A DNA stretch of 28,156 bases from a virus (lineage: Duplodnaviria; Heunggongvirae; Uroviricota; Caudoviricetes), in IMG/VR virus record IMGVR_UViG_2802429240_000006, positions 1 to 28,156 of that record. The stretch is one strand, 5' to 3'. Below are positions 5,923-20,403 of the stretch, piece after piece (the first letter of the stretch is position 1; each line of letters begins with the position of its first letter). The position numbers and the translations under genes were made by a program. Below the pieces are notes generated by a model, which did no database searches, was not told the DNA's origin, and saw only the letters and a list, made by a program, of their open reading frames with translations.

Positions 5923-6532
5923 TATTAACTTTCATCCGTTTAAAAACCGTGGAGCATTTGGTGGCCTTTTTAACGTCGAATCCCGTGGGCTGATGCAGGG
6001 GGATGCGCAGGATGATCCGGCAATTCGTCTGCAACTTTGCTCCGGACGACTGGACAGCAAAATCAGTGAACCGGTATGGGGTGGTGTCGGTGTTATCGAG
6101 TGCATCGCTCCCGCGAAAGACAGCGTTAACGGGGCGGTTATCAAGCAGGCCACGAAGGACGCCTGTAACGCATTTACAGTCTTTAATCAGGCATTTCATG
6201 GCATTACCACGCCGGATAATCCGGTGCCGTTATATCTCGCGGGTGGCTTTGTTCACTATTACCGCGTTGGCTCAGGCGCCCGCATTCCTCTCCCGGTCAG
6301 CGCAGAAGTTGTTGCGCTGGCTGATGGCAATAACACCGTTGCTGCCAGTGGTTTTGTGTGGGATCTGACGAAAAACGTGGTTGATGTTTATTCGGGAACG
6401 CCCGGAGCTAACCCGAAAGTGGACATTAAGTTGCTGATGGTTTCAGTTGACGGAAACCTGACGGTGAAAAAAGAGGACGGCGGTAACGTTGTCTGGGAAA
6501 TCGGTAAGCCGTGCGGCCTGTTTTTAATTTAA
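5915..6532 (+). CDS. Putative head structural protein (decoration or minor capsid)
   Basis: ATG with AAGGGAG RBS; 205 aa between scaffold and putative major capsid gene. Confidence 0.35.
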   Translation: MADINFHPFKNRGAFGGLFNVESRGLMQGDAQDDPAIRLQLCSGRLDSKISEPVWGGVGVIECIAPAKDSVNGAVIKQATKDACNAFTVFNQAFHGITTPDNPVPLYLAGGFVHYYRVGSGARIPLPVSAEVVALADGNNTVAASGFVWDLTKNVVDVYSGTPGANPKVDIKLLMVSVDGNLTVKKEDGGNVVWEIGKPCGLFLI

Positions 6533-6546
6533 GGGGATATTAATTA

Positions 6547-7575
6547 ATGAGCGCATTTACTCCCGCGACTACTATTGTGTCGCCGTCAATGGTGCTGCCG
6601 GAAATGATCGTGCAACAGAGCATGGCTTCCGGGGCGTTTGAAGTCCTGGCTGGCGGTGCTCCAGCGGTAAAAATCAGTTCCAGTGATTTGATGGTCTATC
6701 AGAAATATTTGCGTATGACCTCGCAGGCGCAGGTCAGCCAGTCTCTGCCGGGCCAGTTGCCGTCTTCCAGTATTTCTGGCGGCTATGACGGGATGATGAC
6801 TTACCGAATTTCTTCCCGCTCGCAATACAGCTATCTCGATACTGATGCAGCAGATCGCTGGGGATATTCTCTGATTGAGGGCTTGCGCCTGGCTAACCGC
6901 CAGGGACACGCTCAAATGTTGCGTAATATGCTGCTGTATGGTGTGAATGCAGCTAATAACGAGGGGATCACCAACTCACCTAACGCAGTGACGCTGAATC
7001 TGGGCAACGACAGCAAAGGCAATGATTCTTACACCACCTGGGATTCCGGCGAGATGGCTAAATTTATGCTTGGCCTGATTGCTGACCAGAAAACCCGCAT
7101 GTTGCTGCTGGGGCAGCCATTAACGACTGTCATTCTGAGTCCGCAGCGATTCATGAAGGCGCTGGAGTGGACAGGAATTGTTGAGCTGACCAGTTACCAG
7201 CGTCCTGGTGGTGGTACCGGAACGGTGGGAACGGTGGTTAAAGACGTCGCCGATAAGGCAACAGGCGATGATATCATTTTCTGCCAGGACGACACGCTGA
7301 TCGGTAAGGGCGCTGGTGGTAATGACCTGATCATCGTTACGAACCCGACGATTGAGGTGCCGGAAGCGCGTCACGCCATTAATACCAATATTTTCTCCAC
7401 GCTGGTACCGAACCAGCAGGCCGTCAACGTGATGTTCTGCGACATGGCAGCGCCGACGGAAATCCCGTCCCCTATGCCGGATGGCGGCCTGACCACATTG
7501 TATACCATGCGCGCGACGCCGGGCTGGAACTTCCGCCCGGAGGGGATCACCCTGTTGTCTGCCAAATACGCATAA
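6547..7575 (+). CDS. Putative major capsid protein
   Basis: 342 aa, GGGGA RBS, followed by a strong intrinsic terminator as is common after highly expressed capsid genes; gene order. Confidence 0.5.
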   Translation: MSAFTPATTIVSPSMVLPEMIVQQSMASGAFEVLAGGAPAVKISSSDLMVYQKYLRMTSQAQVSQSLPGQLPSSSISGGYDGMMTYRISSRSQYSYLDTDAADRWGYSLIEGLRLANRQGHAQMLRNMLLYGVNAANNEGITNSPNAVTLNLGNDSKGNDSYTTWDSGEMAKFMLGLIADQKTRMLLLGQPLTTVILSPQRFMKALEWTGIVELTSYQRPGGGTGTVGTVVKDVADKATGDDIIFCQDDTLIGKGAGGNDLIIVTNPTIEVPEARHAINTNIFSTLVPNQQAVNVMFCDMAAPTEIPSPMPDGGLTTLYTMRATPGWNFRPEGITLLSAKYA

Positions 7576-8980: not shown

Positions 8981-9911
8981 GGAATTAGCCGAACAGCACA
9001 GTTCGCAGCTCTCGTCCGTTCTTAAATCCGCAGTTGAAACCATCTCGTCAGACCAGGAAATCACGTTCAGGCTCTATGTCCGGCAGGTTCTGCCGCTGGA
9101 TGGCTTTGTCTATTGGGTTAATGCGGAAATCATCAGTTGCGATGAACTGTGTCGCCTGAATATTGAGTCACCAACTCGTCTGAAAATCAAAGGCAGTCTG
9201 CATCGTCAGGTTATTGCGATTCAGGACGAGTCTGTCTCGAAGGATGTGAACAACATTATTTTCACGCCTGTTCAGCAGGTTGATGATTTTAATGTGGAAA
9301 ATCCCGATGCGATCTATCTCGGTGAGTATGGCGGCGTCCAGTTTGCTTTTTCACGAATGGAGAGCCGTTATCAGCAGTCGGGTATTTTTCATTATCGCGG
9401 TATGGCGATTTTACCAACCATGCGCTCTCAGATTATCGACTGCGAGGAGGATATCAGCGACGAGCAGATCATCTCCAACAGCATCCCGATCTGGCTGCAA
9501 ATGAAAGATGCCGCGACCGTGTATCCGTCTTACCTGGTACCGCAGAACCTTCGTCCTCCGTATATCGCGGTGGATGTTCGCAACAGTATTCCTTTGCAGG
9601 TGGCTCCTGTTGTTTTCGGCGGTGAGCGGTTTCAGCTCGTCCAGGATTCGGTTCGCCTGACGCTTTACGGATTCAGCAACAAAATGGCGCTGGATCTTGT
9701 CGACTCGGTGGTGAACAGGGCGCTGGAGGAGGAAAAGTTTGGCGTAACCAATATTCCGGTGGTTCAGGACGCAAAGTCGGGACAGGTTGAAATCAACGCT
9801 CTGGCGAAGAAAAAAATTGTCGATTTTGACGTGAATTACTACCAGAGCACCGCCCGGGAAATATCCCGGCAGTTGATTGAAAAAGTTATTTGTAAATATG
9901 AGGTTAAATAA
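8967..9911 (+). CDS. Hypothetical neck or tail completion protein
   Basis: 314 aa; position immediately before putative sheath gene. Confidence 0.35.
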   Translation: MPSLEELAEQHSSQLSSVLKSAVETISSDQEITFRLYVRQVLPLDGFVYWVNAEIISCDELCRLNIESPTRLKIKGSLHRQVIAIQDESVSKDVNNIIFTPVQQVDDFNVENPDAIYLGEYGGVQFAFSRMESRYQQSGIFHYRGMAILPTMRSQIIDCEEDISDEQIISNSIPIWLQMKDAATVYPSYLVPQNLRPPYIAVDVRNSIPLQVAPVVFGGERFQLVQDSVRLTLYGFSNKMALDLVDSVVNRALEEEKFGVTNIPVVQDAKSGQVEINALAKKKIVDFDVNYYQSTAREISRQLIEKVICKYEVK

Positions 9912-11248
9912 TGGGATTTAATATCGTCACGGTGAATGTGTCCCAGACCATCGGGGCCATACCCTCGAATCTGCAACAGATGGCTGCGATTCTCTCGTTT
10001 GGTTCCACGACTCATGAGCCGGGAAAGCCTGTATTACTCACCCGTAATCAGGATATTAACGATCTGGTTAAAAATCCGATTGCTGCGTTGTCGGCGGCTG
10101 CCGCAGGAAAATCTGCGGCAAACGTCACCGTTACGATGACGCTTCCGGAAGGGAGTAACATCCGACGCGAAAACAGTTCTGAGGTGAAAATTGTGGTGTC
10201 CGGGTGTTCGCCCGACGCGTGGAATGGCGAATATACTGCTACCGTCACGGATGAAAAAACACTGACCTGGACGATTGCTGATTCTCAGCTTTCCGGTTCG
10301 CCAGTGACACTGGGGCAGTTTTCCATTGTCGGCAGTGAAAATCTGGTGACGGCAGTAAACACGTTTTTTGCCCAGGGAAATTCAGTCGGGATTTACCTGC
10401 TGGAGCTGGGAGTACAGAAAGGCGGGGTCAGTAAGGAAATCGCTGCACTGAAAGCTTATATGGAAGATCCGCTCCTGCGTTTTTATGCGTATCTGGTGCC
10501 GCAGCCGTGGGATGGTGACGCAGAATTTATCAGTCTGGCAAAACTCCACACCGCCAACGAAGCGATGCAGTATTTCTTCGTGCTGACGAAAACGCCGGAC
10601 GACACGAATTACGTTTCGCCTTATGCCGGTATTAAGTCGGTTATTGCAACGGAGGATGATACGTACCCGGCGACAAACGCGGCAGCAGCCGTAATGTGGA
10701 ACTATGTTTCCGCATCACCTTCAGAAATCAACAAGGTGCCGCCGATGGCATTTCGCTATCTGCAGGCGGTAAACGCCCACAAGGGCAAAAATTCCATTCT
10801 GGCCACGATGACAAAGCAGAATATTAACTACGTCGATACGGGTGCTGAGGGTGGAATTTCCAACACGATTCTGGTGAAAGGCGTTACCAGTGACGGTAAC
10901 GATATGACGTACTGGTATTCCGTAGACTGGGTGCAGATTAACGTCGATATGCAGCTCGCCAACACGGTGATCAACGGCAGCAATAACCCAATTAACCCGC
11001 TTTACTACAACCAGGACGGAATCGACCGTCTACAGCAGGTCGCACAGGCGGTGTTCAATACGGGCGTATCTTACGGCCTGGTCAACGGCCAGCCTGTCGT
11101 CGATGCAGTGCCTTTCCGCCAGTATATCAACACTAATCCGAATGATTACGGTATCGGGCGTTATGCAGGCCTTTCGGCCTCCTATACGCCGATGCGCGGA
11201 TTTGTCGAAATCATTTTTAACATCAATGTGACAATGCAGCTTTCGTGA
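9911..11248 (+). CDS. Putative tail sheath protein
   Basis: 445 aa followed by a 147 aa gene, a frameshifted chaperone and the tape measure gene: the canonical contractile-tail order. Confidence 0.45.
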   Translation: MGFNIVTVNVSQTIGAIPSNLQQMAAILSFGSTTHEPGKPVLLTRNQDINDLVKNPIAALSAAAAGKSAANVTVTMTLPEGSNIRRENSSEVKIVVSGCSPDAWNGEYTATVTDEKTLTWTIADSQLSGSPVTLGQFSIVGSENLVTAVNTFFAQGNSVGIYLLELGVQKGGVSKEIAALKAYMEDPLLRFYAYLVPQPWDGDAEFISLAKLHTANEAMQYFFVLTKTPDDTNYVSPYAGIKSVIATEDDTYPATNAAAAVMWNYVSASPSEINKVPPMAFRYLQAVNAHKGKNSILATMTKQNINYVDTGAEGGISNTILVKGVTSDGNDMTYWYSVDWVQINVDMQLANTVINGSNNPINPLYYNQDGIDRLQQVAQAVFNTGVSYGLVNGQPVVDAVPFRQYINTNPNDYGIGRYAGLSASYTPMRGFVEIIFNINVTMQLS

Positions 11249-15041: not shown

Positions 15042-15304
15042 CAACGTTAATTCCTTTTAAACCTGACGGGCGAGGCCCGTTTCAGTTCACGGCCAGAATT
15101 GGAGAATATGAAACATTCGCCCGCGTTCCGTTTAATCTGTATGCAAATCGTTACTACCTGGAACTGAAAGACAGTTCTGGCGACGTGATTGTGTACATGC
15201 CGTTGATCGCGTCACCTGACAGTTACGACATCAATCTGGCGCTGCCTTGCTCACCGGGGAAACTTGTTTTTCGCGAAAGTACGAATCAGTTTGAGGTTTC
15301 GTAA
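15038..15304 (+). CDS. Hypothetical small tail protein
   Basis: 88 aa, start overlaps upstream stop. Confidence 0.35.
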   Translation: MTTLIPFKPDGRGPFQFTARIGEYETFARVPFNLYANRYYLELKDSSGDVIVYMPLIASPDSYDINLALPCSPGKLVFRESTNQFEVS

Positions 15305-16311
15305 TGCGTTATTACCGACTGGAAATTATTAATCCTAAAACAGGAAAGCCGCCAGTGGATTGCAATGGAAAACCCATTGGGCCTTTTGATACCAGTGAAA
15401 CACCAGGATGTGGGTTGCATGTTGAATTTGACTTTGAAGTAACTGGTCTGGATGTAGTCTGCTCGGGTACGATGCTGACTATCTATGGATTACCAATTGA
15501 CATGCTGAAGCAAAGCGTGAGTTTGCAGGGGTGTCTGGTCCGTATGAAAGCGGGCTTTGTTGAGGGATTGCCTTTGGCAAATCCACAGCAACAGGGTGAG
15601 GTTATTTATGGCGAAATTTATCTGGCCTATGCCAACTGGATCGGCACGAACCAGACCTTAAACCTGGTAATAAATCCAACCGTACGCAAAACAGATGATG
15701 GTAAACCGTTCTCTATCGAGGGGGAGGGGCTTAAAGGGGAAAAGGTTGGTGATGTAATCTCCCGTGCGTTGCAAAAGGCATTTCCGAATAAGTTGATCGA
15801 TTGTACTGTCAGCGACAGCCTCGTTTTGCCGGAACCGTGGAATGGAACCTACGAAGATATTGGCTCGCTGGCTATGGTCCTCCGTAGTGCTTCAATTGCA
15901 ATGATGCGCGATGAGAAATACAGCGGAATTGCCATCAGTATTCTTTCCGACAGAATACGAATTTACGATAACGCGTCAGCAAAGTGGGGTGAGCCAAAAA
16001 CAATTCATGCCCATGAACTGGTCGGGCAGCCGACATGGATAGCGCCGTTTACCGTCAGTTTCAAATGTCCTATGAGAGGCGATATCAGATGTGGTGATGT
16101 GGTTAAACTGCCGGAGGGGCTATATTCTGGCGCTGCGTCGATTGTGATGGCTAATACAACGGCACCCAGCGTTATCGCAAAAAATTCGACCACGTTTACC
16201 GGGAAATTTCTTGTGAAATCAGTCAGACACATTGGTTCGTATCTGACAGCCGATGGCGATGCCTGGGTGACGGTATTTGAGGCATATGCTGAGAACTGGG
16301 CGAGGGTGTAA
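15304..16311 (+). CDS. Putative baseplate hub protein
   Basis: 335 aa, gene order between tape measure and spike-like gene. Confidence 0.35.
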   Translation: MRYYRLEIINPKTGKPPVDCNGKPIGPFDTSETPGCGLHVEFDFEVTGLDVVCSGTMLTIYGLPIDMLKQSVSLQGCLVRMKAGFVEGLPLANPQQQGEVIYGEIYLAYANWIGTNQTLNLVINPTVRKTDDGKPFSIEGEGLKGEKVGDVISRALQKAFPNKLIDCTVSDSLVLPEPWNGTYEDIGSLAMVLRSASIAMMRDEKYSGIAISILSDRIRIYDNASAKWGEPKTIHAHELVGQPTWIAPFTVSFKCPMRGDIRCGDVVKLPEGLYSGAASIVMANTTAPSVIAKNSTTFTGKFLVKSVRHIGSYLTADGDAWVTVFEAYAENWARV

Positions 16312-17024
16312 TGTCAAACGCTCAAAAATTACCGTTTCTCCGAACGCTGTCGGAGATGATGACCAGTTCTGGTAACCAGCAAGCCGAGCTTAAAGGCCGC
16401 GAATTGCCCTGCCATGTTGTCGATGTCAGTGGGCAGATAGTGACCGTTCAGTTTGATATGTTGCCAGAGGGGATCAACTTTCCGCAGATAACAATCCCTG
16501 TCGCCACATTCCCGTATATCCGTTACCCGATACAGCCGGGGGATCGAGGAGTAACAATTGCCGCTGATGTATCCCTGCGCGGTGTGTCCGGATTGGGAAC
16601 CGGTATGGCGACGCTCTCTTACTCGATGTCGCTCACTCCACTGTTTTTCGTGCCACTGGCAAACAAGGACTGGTCCGACGAAGATCCGCAAAAAATCGTT
16701 TTGTACGGTCCGGATGGCGCGATCCTCAAAACAGAGGACGGCAGTAGCTCGGTAACGGTGGCACCGGAAGAAATCAGGCTAAAGTCGAAAGCTGTTTACC
16801 TCGAGGCCGAAGATATCTTCATGAACGGTCAAATTCACCTCAACGGACCGATCGTCCAGGACAAAGCCCAGATGAAGGATACAACCGCTTCGCTGATTGG
16901 CCCTCTCAAAGTCGAGAAGGATGCAGTTATCAACGGCGTGAGCGCCAGCGGTCACAGCCACGATGTGACTGGCGTTCAAAGCGGCAACAGCACGATCACG
17001 TCGAAGAAACCAAATCCGGGTTAA
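16311..17024 (+). CDS. Putative baseplate spike protein (gpV-like)
   Basis: 237 aa; C-terminal GHSHD motif reminiscent of the HxH tip motif of P2 gpV-type spikes; gene order. Confidence 0.5.
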   Translation: MSNAQKLPFLRTLSEMMTSSGNQQAELKGRELPCHVVDVSGQIVTVQFDMLPEGINFPQITIPVATFPYIRYPIQPGDRGVTIAADVSLRGVSGLGTGMATLSYSMSLTPLFFVPLANKDWSDEDPQKIVLYGPDGAILKTEDGSSSVTVAPEEIRLKSKAVYLEAEDIFMNGQIHLNGPIVQDKAQMKDTTASLIGPLKVEKDAVINGVSASGHSHDVTGVQSGNSTITSKKPNPG

Positions 17025-17062
17025 TACCGGTTCATTTCACTTTAAATACTACCCATAAAACG

Positions 17063-17100
17063 AAAACCCCGACTGCTGGCCCAGTCGGGGTTTTCTGTTT
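17063..17100 (+). terminator. Rho-independent terminator (potentially bidirectional)
   Basis: AAAA-CCCCGACTG-ctggcc-CAGTCGGGG-TTTTCTGTTT; 9 bp GC-rich stem, A tract upstream and T tract downstream. Confidence 0.7.
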
Positions 17101-17128
17101 CTGACCTTGAATAAGGCAAGGAGAAGTC

Positions 17129-17266
17129 GTGTTTGATTTTAGCAAACTGATTCGGGAGATTCGAGTTATGGCTGAAAAATTATCCACCTGGAAGTTTTTG
17201 CTTATTTGGTTGGTCTTTCTGATTCTGGCGTCTGGTTATTTTGTTGGCCAGATCCGATGGTGGTGA
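17129..17266 (+). CDS. Small hydrophobic (single transmembrane segment) protein, 45 aa
   Basis: GTG start preceded by AAGGAG at 5 nt spacing; translation VFDFSKLIREIRVMAEKLSTWKFLLIWLVFLILASGYFVGQIRWW; stop 8 nt before the next start; below the size cut-off of the ORF track. Confidence 0.4.
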   Translation: MFDFSKLIREIRVMAEKLSTWKFLLIWLVFLILASGYFVGQIRWW

Positions 17267-17273
17267 GGGCACG

Positions 17274-17621
17274 ATGAGAACATGGGGCCGCGTCACCGAC
17301 GCGAACGGCAACAAAAAATGGGTTGCTGTAGAATCTGATGCCAACGGTGATTTCTCCTACGGCTGGCTGACGACGCTCATTCAGACGTTAAAGCTGGGGT
17401 TGGGGGAGTCGCCGTTTTACGCGAATTACGGTATTCCAGCGCAGCAGTGCATCGTGCAGCAAATTTACCCGGACTACTATGTGAACATGGTTCAGCAACA
17501 GTTTGCCGGGTATTTTGCATCGCTGGCAATTTCAAAGGTAGATGGGGCAGAGAACCCCACCTATAACATCGATGTTGTGTTTTTTAATGGGACCAGTTAC
17601 CGGACGCAGGTTCCGGTTTGA
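17274..17621 (+). CDS. Putative baseplate wedge protein (gp25 / gpW-like)
   Basis: ATG at 17274 (M12 of track ORF 17241..17621) with GGTGAGGG RBS; 115 aa; GESPFYANYG resembles the GxxPFxxxxG motif of T4 gp25. Confidence 0.4.
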   Translation: MRTWGRVTDANGNKKWVAVESDANGDFSYGWLTTLIQTLKLGLGESPFYANYGIPAQQCIVQQIYPDYYVNMVQQQFAGYFASLAISKVDGAENPTYNIDVVFFNGTSYRTQVPV

Positions 17622-18157
17622 GGCAAGTTTTCGGGCATCAGTTGGGCCAGTGGCGTGTTAAGAAGTTCATCGCGTGGCATGACAATCCATCCACTTTTGC
17701 GTAGTAAGTGAATTGCCCATTCTGTGGTTATAACTGAGCCTGATTTATGGTGCTCAATGTGGGTAACCGAGCCGTTTCTGACGCGCATGATGATGTCAAC
17801 ATTCAGAGGGGATTGTGTGCTGGTGGTATCCTCGCGCAGTTTTTTCTCGCACTCGATGAAGTATCGGCGGATCTGGTGGCCTTTTTCGTTGCGCTCAACC
17901 ATCGCCAGCTCTTTGGCGGTGTCCAGGGTTAGGTGGTAGTCTTTAGCTGGTCTGCCTCTACCGATTTTTTCCCGATTTTGGGAAATAATCAAAAAGTCCT
18001 GATTTTCTACGAATTCATACTCGCTGATTCGCTCGGTGATCCATGTAGCAAAGCGTTTACCTACTTCGAGAAAGGCGTGCAGATCGCGAGCATTACAGAG
18101 AAGGATTGTTTCGTTTGAGACAGTTCCGTTGAAAACGGGGATCAGTTGGGTTGTCAT
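17597..18157 (-). CDS. Phage antirepressor (AntA N-terminal domain plus KilA-C-like C-terminal domain)
   Basis: Start at ATG 18155-18157 (M85 of the 270 aa track ORF) with AGAGG RBS; motifs NARDLHAFLEVGKRFATWI and GRGRPAKDYHLTLDTAKELAMV...RRYFIECEK typical of phage antirepressors. Confidence 0.75.
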   Translation of the reverse strand: MTTQLIPVFNGTVSNETILLCNARDLHAFLEVGKRFATWITERISEYEFVENQDFLIISQNREKIGRGRPAKDYHLTLDTAKELAMVERNEKGHQIRRYFIECEKKLREDTTSTQSPLNVDIIMRVRNGSVTHIEHHKSGSVITTEWAIHLLRKSGWIVMPRDELLNTPLAQLMPENLPQTGTCVR

Positions 18158-18430
18158 GATGACCTCTGTTTGTTTTCTTCGAATTACCACTATCTGAGTG
18201 GTGCCAGGAGGTTCGAAACGGCACAAACAAAGCCGCGGACTTATTCCCCTTTCGGGTGTTGTATTCGTCGCCCTCCCGACATTGATCGGGGATGTGACCG
18301 CACATGGTGCCATCACTAAATAGTAGGCATAAAAAATCCAACACTGACGGGGTTGGTTGTGACCGTGTTTGTTGAGGTTTCGACGCCTCATGCGCCCAAT
18401 CATACTCAATTGGGCGCGGTTGTAAAGAGC
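18158..18430 (-). promoter_or_regulatory. Long structured leader / control region upstream of antirepressor, containing a 9 bp perfect inverted repeat
   Basis: GCGCCCAAT-catactca-ATTGGGCGC at 18392-18417; further GC-rich hairpins; no convincing ORF. Confidence 0.4.
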
Positions 18431-18664
18431 TTAGTTAGCAATGAAAATTGAATTAAAGTAGTTACCATCTTTTGAGGCAATCACTTTACCTGAACTACGT
18501 GAAATAATGTTAACTCGCATATTTATTGTTGGGTTTGCGGTATACATCATAAATTTAAGTTTATAATTCCTTTCAAGCATGATTCGTTTGGATGGTGCTT
18601 GCTTATCAAAAAAATTAGTTGGTCCCATATTACCCGTGACTGAAAGGTTACAAGAGCTCGGCAT
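18431..18664 (-). CDS. Hypothetical small protein (77 aa) in AT-rich cassette; coding status doubtful
   Basis: ORF from track; no good RBS before the first ATG, internal ATG at codon 13 has a weak GGG; AT-rich like the lipoprotein gene. Confidence 0.3.
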   Translation of the reverse strand: MPSSCNLSVTGNMGPTNFFDKQAPSKRIMLERNYKLKFMMYTANPTINMRVNIISRSSGKVIASKDGNYFNSIFIAN

Positions 18665-18723
18665 ATATAATTCAAAGCTTCTGCTATCATAGCAAAATAG
18701 TTCGGCTTCATATGGAAAGCGTT

Positions 18724-19155
18724 TTATCGAAGCAGTATTGAATTCTTTTTCATTTTTTTTGATTCTTCCTCTGCTTCCCTTTTAATATCTTCTATTCTCT
18801 TTTGTTGTTCGCGTTCTTCTTTTTCTTTTTGAGCTTTTCTTTCATCTTCAGTCACAAAAACAACATGTACATCATTTGACCATCTGCCAGTTGATTGTAG
18901 ATAACCTTGAGAATATGAGCCATCAGATAATGTAGCGATTGCTGGTCGCTCAGTAAAATCATCTGAACCATAAATCATGCCACCTGTGTAATCAATTCTT
19001 GTGGCTTTAATTGCTCTGTGGCTATTTATAGTATTTAGTATTCTTTCATTTGTGTACCCACTAATTAACAAACCGTCGGCAAGGTTAGTTTGTTGTTCGT
19101 ATGGAACGCAGCCAACTACCGAAAATGAAATCAATAAAGAAATTAACTTTTTCAC
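18724..19155 (-). CDS. Lipoprotein with ER/K-rich charged C-terminal tail (accessory / moron gene)
   Basis: GTG start with AGGG RBS; signal peptide MKKLISLLISFSVVGC with lipobox VVGC, Cys followed by V (not D); C-terminus ERKAQKEKEEREQQKRIEDIKREAEEESKKMKK; strongly AT-rich relative to flanking genes. Confidence 0.65.
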   Translation of the reverse strand: MKKLISLLISFSVVGCVPYEQQTNLADGLLISGYTNERILNTINSHRAIKATRIDYTGGMIYGSDDFTERPAIATLSDGSYSQGYLQSTGRWSNDVHVVFVTEDERKAQKEKEEREQQKRIEDIKREAEEESKKMKKNSILLR

Positions 19156-19176
19156 AACTTACCCTTGAGATTAACT

Positions 19177-20403
19177 ATGTCAGAAATACCAATTACTATG
19201 ACCAGTGCGGGTGCGCAGCCTACGCCACCCAATGATTTGCTTGCGAATCTTATCACCAGAGTTGCTGAAAAAGTACCTGGATATACAGCCAACCTTCCGG
19301 CGGGACTTATTACAGACCTTGCCAGCACGGCAGTCGGGGCGCTGGCATTAATAGACCAGGCGCGGGTTGATCTTATTAACTCCGTAAGCCCATACGGCGC
19401 GAATATTCCGTTACTGATGCAACTCGGAAACATATATGGAGCACAGAAGGGATTAAGTACAAATACGGCTGTATACGTGGTGTTTGAGGCGTTGCCGGGG
19501 TTTGGTATCCCTAAAGGATTTGTGGTTGGAGACGGTAACTACCAGTATGCGGTTTCCCGCGATACGGTGGTGCCGGAAAGTGGGCAGACTGAACCAGTCT
19601 ACTGTGTGGCCACTACGTCAGGCTCATGGGCTGTACCGGAAGGGACCGTGACGCAGGTCATTACATCAGTACCCAAAGACCAGCCTGTAAAATGCACCAA
19701 CCTAACCGCAGGGATGCCAGGTCAGGAGGCGCAAACGTGGGCATCATACCGCGCCGAAGTCATGGAGTCCGGCATGTTTGGTGTGCAGGGAACACCGGAT
19801 TGCTTTAAAGCGATGCTCAAATCAGTAAGCGGTGTGCGAGAAAACCTGATTTCTTTCCGGCAGTCGTCGTTGGGGAAATGGGTTGCGGTTGTTGGTGGCG
19901 GTGATCCGTATGATGTGGCTTATGCGATTTACAAATCTGTACCGGATATTTCGAAACTGACCAACGATGTTAGCAATCCATCCGGTGCGGCAGTGGAAAA
20001 ACGCACGGTTTCAATAACCGTTTCGCCGGACGTTTATCAGGTGCCGTTCGTTATCCCGTCATCACAAAACGTCATGGTGCTAATCACCTGGAACACGGTG
20101 TCTGATGATTATGTTGATCCGGCGGGTATTGCTATGGCTGTGCAGCAAAACGTTGCTGATTACATCAATTCTATTGAAGTCGGTCACCCGATAAATCTGC
20201 TGCGAATCCAGGATATTTTTACCAGCTCCGTAAAATTGCTGGTTGATGCGACGTTGATCTCAACAATCAGTGTGAGCATTGGTATTAACGGCCATATTGT
20301 TCTTCCGGCAAAAGACACAAGCCTGGTTTATGGCGATACCTATTCCTATTTTTCAACGGTGGCATCACAGGTTCAGGTCAACAAGTATGCAATATCTGAC
20401 TGA
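19177..20403 (+). CDS. Putative baseplate protein J-like
   Basis: ATG 19177 (track start TTG 19165); ~408 aa; position before I-like and tail fiber genes. Confidence 0.5.
   Translation: MSEIPITMTSAGAQPTPPNDLLANLITRVAEKVPGYTANLPAGLITDLASTAVGALALIDQARVDLINSVSPYGANIPLLMQLGNIYGAQKGLSTNTAVYVVFEALPGFGIPKGFVVGDGNYQYAVSRDTVVPESGQTEPVYCVATTSGSWAVPEGTVTQVITSVPKDQPVKCTNLTAGMPGQEAQTWASYRAEVMESGMFGVQGTPDCFKAMLKSVSGVRENLISFRQSSLGKWVAVVGGGDPYDVAYAIYKSVPDISKLTNDVSNPSGAAVEKRTVSITVSPDVYQVPFVIPSSQNVMVLITWNTVSDDYVDPAGIAMAVQQNVADYINSIEVGHPINLLRIQDIFTSSVKLLVDATLISTISVSIGINGHIVLPAKDTSLVYGDTYSYFSTVASQVQVNKYAISD

Follow-up and report, generated by a model that had tools for sequence, protein, structure and literature searches.

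In phages P1 and P7 the c4 antisense RNA controls icd-ant, phage P4 works by a like mechanism, and RNAs of the C4 family act in trans in P1, P7 and P4. Lipoproteins that block receptors and thereby exclude other phages, such as T5 Llp and the Cor proteins of phi80, N15 and HK022, are made by the infected or lysogenic cell from genes that lie beside tail and receptor-binding genes, llp being divergent from them. Here we examine a locus with features of both in a 28,156-nucleotide stretch of viral DNA (IMG/VR record IMGVR_UViG_2802429240_000006, positions 1 to 28,156; hereafter the window). Between its W-like and J-like baseplate genes lies a cassette of two independent minus-strand modules: an immI-like second-immunity unit, in which a small RNA (sRNA) of the sRNA-Xcc1 family precedes the antirepressor gene ant, and a lipoprotein gene. 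The hotspot and the antirepressor are each of a familiar sort. What is new is evidence that sRNA-Xcc1 regulates antirepressor genes and can be programmed through its loop; also of interest is a rare lipoprotein family bound to the W-J slot. We hold it reasonably likely that the locus as a whole is a W-J cargo hotspot carrying an sRNA-controlled ant module and a rare module for an exclusion lipoprotein.

The cassette spans 1,555 bp, from the end of the W-like gene at 17621 to the J-like ATG at 19177, and contains genes on the minus strand only. An initial annotation of this stretch had recognized the opposite-strand insert and had read in it three protein genes, namely an antirepressor, a doubtful 77-amino-acid (aa) open reading frame (ORF) and a lipoprotein; its observations were partly confirmed and its interpretation was partly supported. 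The antirepressor call stands (AntA/PF08346, 98 bits against a cutoff of 27), as does the view that the cassette is accessory rather than structural, but the content is two protein genes and one RNA gene. The 270-aa ant ORF called from TTG 18409 was an over-call, the ATG at 18157 (186 aa), preceded by AGAGG, being the start called in the relative L003 and others; and the 270-nt leader 5′ of this ATG, which had been overlooked, contains a promoter, a terminator and an sRNA-Xcc1 gene. In the order of transcription, the elements of the ant module are:

18426-18399, minus strand: promoter-like site TTTACA-16-TATGAT (10/12 matches in a consensus scan), marking the left boundary of the conserved ant module
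18389-18365, minus strand: upstream target, a GAGG..CCUC hairpin with UCGAAA (18389-18374) followed by site 1, AACAAACAC (18373-18365); covaries with the RNA loop across phages
18356-18331, minus strand: hairpin resembling an intrinsic terminator and followed by a T6 run, placed between site 1 and the sRNA (identified by reading the sequence and by folding)
18280-18195, minus strand: sRNA-Xcc1 gene, 86 nt (Rfam RF02221)
18184-18163, minus strand: downstream target, a UUCGAA box (18184-18177) and site 2, ACAAACAGAGG (18173-18163), overlapping the ant Shine-Dalgarno sequence; complementary to the RNA junction and loop
18157-17597, minus strand: ant, 186-aa antirepressor with an AntA N-terminal domain (PF08346; phrog_14211/377)

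The RNA matches RF02221 along the entire model (positions 1-87 of 87), scoring 70.9 bits (E 3e-12) where the gathering score is 53, and is the sole Rfam match in the window. It is encoded on the ant strand, 38 nt upstream of the ant ATG, in the operon-leader position of c4/CI-type RNAs. A 9-bp closing stem, followed by ACCA, encloses a first hairpin (AAUACAA..GGGGAAU) and a second one, whose loop CUUUGUUUGUG (18232-18222) is followed by the junction GUUUCGAA (18219-18212); a further small hairpin lies between the RNA and the UUCGAA box. The hairpin-2 loop is complementary to both site 1 and site 2, and RNAduplex paired the 3′ half of the sRNA with the site 1 region at -27.1 kcal/mol (equalled by 1 of 500 shuffles) and with the site 2 region at -21.7 kcal/mol (equalled by 13 of 500). 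The leader promoter is the sole promoter-like site in 17000-19700 and is kept in relatives, with TTGACA-18-TATGAT in other lineages. The terminator hairpin is likewise conserved in relatives; a consensus scan passed over it on account of its 9-nt loop. A palindrome over the promoter, GCGCCCAAT-N8-ATTGGGCGC, was considered as a conserved operator and rejected, since its arms do not covary in relatives.

This anatomy parallels that of the described immunity RNAs in several respects. As with c4 of P1 and P7, a structured small RNA lies in the leader of an antirepressor operon on the same strand; as with both c4 and P4 CI, its loop and junction are complementary to an upstream, terminator-side target and to a downstream target at the ribosome-binding site (RBS), and the recognition sequence is phage-specific. 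The order of upstream targets and terminator, RNA, and downstream targets is that of P4 CI and N15, whose layouts we checked. C4 RNA and the window RNA are both ~87 nt long; in each, NCC(A) follows the terminal stem, and of the two internal hairpins the second bears the variable loop. The P4 CI and N15 RNAs score 75-79 bits as Rfam C4 (RF01695) and are preceded by isrK/c4-a1b1, which models the upstream targets and terminator; in the window, the C4, isrK and c4-a1b1 models gave no match at E up to 1 in 18100-18450 or 16900-19400. The window RNA would therefore be c4/CI-like in its working but lies outside that family, and by analogy it seems to carry the logic of P1 c4 and P4 CI in a different RNA family. 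Unlike P1 immI, the window has no icd-like ORF between the RNA and ant. Three candidates for membership of the same system were rejected: N15 CA RNA, as N15 carries C4 and isrK; P4 CI RNA, which is a C4 RNA preceded by isrK/c4-a1b1; and the 24B_1 RNA of phi24B with d_ant, which represents a different locus with its target inside the gene.

Support for base pairing between the loop and its two sites came from comparison across phages. Leaders that are otherwise ~86-93% identical carry different loops, and both sites change to match, giving loop/site pairs such as CUUGUA/UACAAG, CUCACUGA/UCAGUGAG and UCUUUUUGC/GCAAAAAGA; the sRNA loop of L007 reads CCUCACUGA. A pattern scan of IMG/VR yielded 120 more loci, and one representative per distinct loop was compared (n=62). 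The loops, 7-11 nt long, pair in registers that shift, and for this reason an alignment-free permutation test (loops permuted among loci, 1000 permutations) took the place of a column-wise count of covariation. A loop-complementary 6-mer occurred at both sites in 47 of the 62 loop types, compared with 3.5±1.8 under permutation (maximum of 10 across the 1000 permutations), and 7-mers occurred at both sites in 31 of 62, compared with 0.9±1.0. Loop, site 1 and site 2 thus show a three-way covariation, and the two-sided complementarity, RBS site and phage-variable specificity of the c4/CI-type class are all present. Across the family, site 2 ends 8-11 nt 5′ of the start codon, and the median distance from the upstream site to the RNA core is 106 nt. 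The targets of E. coli-type leaders are bipartite: besides its loop match, each site has on its 5′ side a UCGAA(A) box that corresponds to the sRNA's conserved UUUCGAA junction.

The genomic neighbourhood of the RNA is also consistent. sRNA-Xcc1 precedes every full-length antirepressor in the W-J slot, whether of AntA type or, in a distant relative, of Bro-N type, and it also precedes ant of Shiga toxin (Stx) phages. Among the distinct-loop cases, the downstream protein carried an antirepressor-type domain in 28 of 29 (KilA-N 8, AntA 5, Rha 5, ORF6N 4, P22_AR_N 3, Bro-N 3). In published accounts the RNA figures as follows: as an integron sRNA controlled by HrpG/HrpX, as cargo of Xylella vesicles, and upstream of an ORF6N gene in APSE phages or of symE in Xanthomonas integrons; no paper in the literature searched ties it to antirepressor control. 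Publications linking it to HrpG/HrpX control and predicting many host targets would suit a trans regulator chiefly of host or virulence genes, whose place upstream of ant is incidental. Such a role accounts poorly for a loop that tracks two flanking sites of its own locus (47/62 against 3.5 expected) and for the antirepressor type of nearly every downstream gene (28/29), and the change of loop from phage to phage is ill-fitting for a conserved host target; we regard it as very improbable.

Covariation is expected equally whether the RNA acts in cis or in trans, and both sites always share one transcript with the RNA. A cis-only riboregulator, in which the loop sequesters the RBS of its own transcript and site 1 competes for it, with neither a diffusible immunity RNA nor heteroimmunity, would also agree with the minimum-free-energy fold of the full leader, which pairs the loop with site 2 in cis. 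Several lines of evidence point away from it: the structurally parallel C4 family acts in trans in P1, P7 and P4; the closed stem followed by ACCA resembles that of processed c4/CI RNAs; reports from Xanthomonas and Xylella describe sRNA-Xcc1 as a discrete sRNA; and an untranslated ~89-nt species is among the most abundant non-coding RNAs of uninduced enterohaemorrhagic E. coli (EHEC) EDL933, with 25,609 reads per kilobase per million and a ribosome coverage of 0.02 for a copy that may or may not lie ahead of ant (PMC5331693, Table 1). On this evidence we consider an exclusively cis-acting RNA unlikely and favour a diffusible one.

Besides the cis fold, some observations count against a programmable trans-acting RNA. 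A shared 6-mer at both sites is missing from 15 of the 62 loop types, the L083 and L036 leaders match at one site only, and the UCGAA box is found near the sites in only ~40% of representatives. The 5′ and 3′ ends of the sRNA, its processing and its trans action would follow from analogy only, and the locus itself is known from sequence and computation alone.

Some Stx-type phages, among them phage TL-2011c (L016 2865-2950, 3400-3489) and L059, have a pair of sRNA-Xcc1 modules in tandem whose loops differ; one lies 5′ of ant and the other 5′ of a 94-aa ORF that holds the AntA N-domain only. Each loop matches its own flanking sites.

We propose that the leader works as an immunity-RNA switch. 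Its near-consensus sigma-70 promoter would be constitutive and would transcribe site 1, the terminator, the sRNA and site 2, followed by ant. Cut from this transcript, the sRNA would accumulate in the lysogen, where its variable hairpin-2 loop and conserved UUUCGAA junction could base-pair with both targets. Free sRNA pairing with site 2 and the UUCGAA box would block ant translation, and pairing at site 1 would influence leader termination, probably by promoting early termination. The same sRNA would act on the resident copy and, in trans, on an incoming phage with an identical loop; phages with different loops would escape, and their Ant would inactivate the resident repressor. Because the predicted duplex is stronger at site 1 than at site 2, site 1 could also be a cis decoy, possibly allowing an early burst of Ant before free sRNA builds up.

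If this RNA model is true, an Rfam family that annotation pipelines mark without explanation in many pathogens, such as EHEC, Xylella, Xanthomonas and Haemophilus, would gain a readily testable function, and RNA control of antirepressors (P1, P7, P4, N15) would operate through at least two RNA families serving six antirepressor domain families. Loops read from genomes would then predict prophage immunity to, and inducibility by, incoming phages, Shiga toxin phages included. Induction of Stx phages drives toxin release. More tentatively, as a proposal we find quite possible though short of probable, sRNA-Xcc1, at present annotated in Proteobacteria as an orphan or virulence-linked sRNA, would be a second widespread family of programmable immunity RNAs, serving at least six antirepressor families and defining heteroimmunity groups in many temperate phages, the Stx phages among them, and the W-J slot would hold undescribed, baseplate-tied exclusion lipoproteins.

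The initial annotation had likened the cassette to the immI and sieA region of P22. The comparison holds insofar as both place an antirepressor module within the late or structural region beside a candidate exclusion gene and transcribe it against or apart from the late genes, and the cassette is reminiscent of an immI-type second immunity region set in the late operon. It fails for the control of ant: the cassette has no Mnt/Arc-type repressor ORFs (by ORF list and Pfam), and the only Rfam match to sar, at a sub-threshold 21.6 bits against a gathering score of 43, lies outside the cassette on the other strand (17042-17096). A P22-type immI, with Mnt, Arc and a sar RNA antisense to the ant start, is thus not what the window carries; its antirepressor is of AntA rather than P22_AR type, and its neighbour is a lipoprotein rather than the inner-membrane SieA.

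The ant gene itself (98-99 bits to PF08346, AntA/AntB, against a gathering score of 27) has, with its leader, a phage-like GC content of 0.49-0.50. Its N-terminal half and leader (17831-18426) share ~78-79% DNA identity with Stx-phage ant loci, the matches spanning 17831-18389/18426, whereas its C-terminal 78 codons are peculiar to the Rac-SA53-like lineage and finish with an invariant 25-nt overlap of the W gene. Judged by this pattern of matches, ant is a mosaic with its junction at 17831.

The second module of the cassette consists of one gene:

18431-19155, minus strand: 241-aa outer-membrane-type lipoprotein gene, AT-rich, variable cargo, lipobox VVGC with Cys16; frameshifted in the window

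The separate 77-aa ORF (18431-18664) and lipoprotein ORF (143 aa, 18724-19155) of the initial annotation are fragments of this gene, as the sole homologues among 5.8 billion proteins are 241-242 aa long and span both. At 18753-18762 the window reads TC-AAAAAAAA where a 99.7%-identical intact copy (L003/L004; 723 of 725 bases the same; in L003 at 6001-6726) reads TCC-AAAAAAAA, that is, GAA TCC AAA AAA AAT against GAA TC AAAAAAAA TG. Loss of a single C at 18761/18760 brings the reading to an early stop at 18724-18726. The gene could be intact in the real genome if an error of sequencing or assembly left this lesion, a single missing base beside an A8 run in a copy with only 2 of 725 bases different from the intact ones. 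We think this doubtful, in that the lost base is a C and not an A, and a fragment from another allele, P0005, reads the shifted frame from a nearby point (as judged from the protein sequence). If the lesion is genuine, the lipoprotein function may be lost or altered in the window copy; from the sequence, one extra A gained by polymerase slippage on the A8 run would give TCA AAA AAA AAT and with it the exact wild-type protein. Fragmentary copies also occur in other E. coli assemblies, P0004 (ACLB1E_23470) and P0005 (ACLB1Q_06505), the latter out of frame a few bases from the window lesion in a different allele; these could reflect recurrent inactivation or assembly error.

The protein begins with a signal peptide and lipobox, MKKLISLLISFSVVG-C16, of which Gly15 and Cys16 are invariant in 10 homologues (26-85% identity), and two further cysteines are kept in all of them. 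Residue +2 directs the sorting of bacterial lipoproteins, and the Val found there suggests an outer-membrane destination. AlphaFold, run on 10 sequences, returned a model with a mean predicted local distance difference test score of 85.8, comprising an alpha/beta N-domain (36-102), a charged 38-residue helix (103-140) and a beta-rich C-domain (149-240). Fold searches of this model against PDB and BFVD found nothing significant, and searches of the protein against Pfam, PHROG, NCBIfam and PADLOC, by tblastn against 50,697 phage records, and of its DNA by megablast against 5,426 complete E. coli genomes gave no match; profile searches on the cassette products, which the initial annotation had proposed, thus assigned ant to AntA and the lipoprotein to no family. 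Clustering at 50% identity leaves the family with only 8 clusters in 1.8 billion representatives, and a further word-indexed protein search, run with the family profile, brought in P0012 alone. All seven members with readable context (P0001-P0003, P0006, P0007, P0011, P0012) adjoin W and/or J, the contig of P0009 (1.1 kb) being too short for context and outside the seven, and members occupy the slot alone, with AntA or with Bro-N.

The AT-richness noted by eye was borne out by computation. At a GC content of 0.345, against a window mean of 0.496 (standard deviation 0.038), the gene is lower than any other 725-nt stretch in the 28-kb window, and GC at its third codon positions is 0.22-0.31 compared with 0.45-0.62 in the flanks. 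The low GC is no evidence of recent acquisition: family members have GC contents of 0.32-0.38 beside J genes of 0.51-0.57, including members only 27-37% identical in the same slot, and since all are AT-rich, low GC is a lasting family trait rather than a sign of recent arrival. With the window protein these distant members share 27-37% identity, where W and J reach 70-85% and 65-70%.

We infer that the lipoprotein is a lysogen-made envelope protein that would exclude superinfecting related phages, a role favoured because of its export, its fast divergence, its linkage to baseplate and fibre genes and the mostly exported nature of the alternative cargos of the slot. Like Llp and Cor, the window lipoprotein is encoded in a phage beside structural genes, being a fast-evolving lipobox protein next to baseplate and fibre genes; it is unlike them in lacking sequence or fold similarity, and with its two domains and long helix it is 3-4 times larger, so that it shows no similarity to a characterized member by which it could be placed in either group. 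Against an exclusion function in the window copy stand the truncation after the helix caused by the premature stop, and the failure of a sigma-70 consensus scan of 17000-19700 to find a promoter for the gene, only weak -10-like hexamers being visible by eye, within J codons 5-8. Another envelope role, as a lysozyme or peptidoglycan hydrolase inhibitor, a Bor-like serum-resistance or colonization factor, or a decaying protein without benefit, is in our estimation rather unlikely: the family occurs in a single slot, next to baseplate and fibre genes, of a single phage lineage and diverges far faster than its neighbours, a pattern that suits an arms race between phages better than a function aimed at the host, and structural matches were all below a useful threshold.

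Both modules sit between two conserved genes:

17274-17621, plus strand: W-like baseplate gene, 115 aa, left conserved flank (phrog_7986, function unknown; position and size)
19177-20403, plus strand: J-like baseplate wedge gene, right conserved flank (Baseplate_J, E 8.7e-8; phrog_6, 1.4e-38)

The divergent starts described in the initial annotation were confirmed, the lipoprotein GTG at 19155 and the J ATG at 19177 having 21 nt between them. The idea that each promoter lies inside the coding region of the other gene is tenable for the lipoprotein gene only, and not for J. Late transcripts must cross the cassette antisense, as had been surmised, because there is no plus-strand promoter-like site in 17000-19700 and relatives with an empty slot have no room for a J-specific promoter.

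A suspected variability of this position was evident in relatives. From 80 viral contigs fetched with the conserved W protein, 79 contained the W-J pair, and in 9 of these, all more distant relatives (J 54-71% identical), W and J are separated by just 48-61 bp. The others hold 28 distinct cargo types of 469-3,135 bp, all AT-rich (GC 0.33-0.46), and ~23 of the 28 encode a product that bears a signal peptide or lipobox, mostly from a minus-strand gene adjoining J. Conserved flanks, relatives with nothing between them and a wide range of unrelated inserts mark the W-J slot as a true cargo hotspot, and complete E. coli genomes show the same pattern of cargo replacement as the viral contigs; in the literature searched, we found no description of a hotspot at the baseplate W-J position of a Rac-SA53-like myovirus. 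From one cargo type to another, homology stops at 18427 on the left and is regained on the right at 19125-19177, which makes the lipoprotein gene the exchangeable part and the ant module a semi-conserved one.

The commonest cargo, in 21 contigs, is a plus-strand protein of 386 to 391 aa with an HSDR_N nuclease-like domain, without ant. This protein, related to the N-terminal nuclease-like part of type I restriction R subunits (for example L014 1795-2955, and L150), has no PADLOC match and is a candidate single-gene defence protein. Among the other inserts are ant with one or two secreted proteins, ant with an LprI-family protein, a YafO toxin module, and several lipoproteins; a PADLOC search of 10 cargo proteins gave no match. 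The YafO-family toxin gene and an upstream 190-aa partner lie between W and ant (L012 909-1899, L007 4204-5194, and L186), marking a third insertion point within the slot. Temperate phages such as P2 and P4 have moron and defence hotspots that are similar in their conserved flanks, occasional empty relatives, varied AT-rich cargos and toxin-antitoxin modules, but differ in that the W-J slot carries mostly exported proteins and not known cytoplasmic defence systems. It offers a compact catalogue of ~28 mostly exported cargo proteins of unknown function that could be screened for phage exclusion.

The window represents the late region of a Rac-SA53-like temperate myovirus of E. coli, with Escherichia phage Rac-SA53 among its nearest relatives (94% identity) and close relatives in ~90 of the 5,426 complete E. 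coli genomes; a scan of genome contigs with the J protein matched one locus. The label "W-like" is by position and length only (115 aa), Pfam and PDB sequence searches giving no match and PHROG only phrog_7986. The protein is 70-97% identical among relatives, and the last 25 nt of its gene overlap the 3′ end of the convergent ant. The J-like gene is followed on the plus strand by the next wedge gene and then by fibre genes, and upstream of W lie:

15304-16311, plus strand: hub-like gene (gene order)
16311-17024, plus strand: spike-like gene (gene order)
17129-17266, plus strand: 45-aa hydrophobic or membrane ORF (phrog_6632)

The record of Actinobacillus phage vB_Apl-pPE4 (L002, PP818812.1) is 97% identical to the window; because its baseplate region is 96-97% identical to this E. 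coli prophage lineage, its attribution to an Actinobacillus host looks doubtful on sequence grounds. The metagenomic relative L005 has two holins and a glycoside hydrolase 108 endolysin 5′ of W (9094-11082) in place of hub and spike, so mosaicism extends to the W side as well, and the V-W junction is variable too, with a Rha regulator inserted there in L009. Directly 3′ of the spike gene and 5′ of the 45-aa ORF is a strong, bidirectional terminator-like hairpin with a 14-bp stem (17062-17095), and the stretch 17055-17266 has ~84% matches, often unannotated, in ~800 E. coli genomes.

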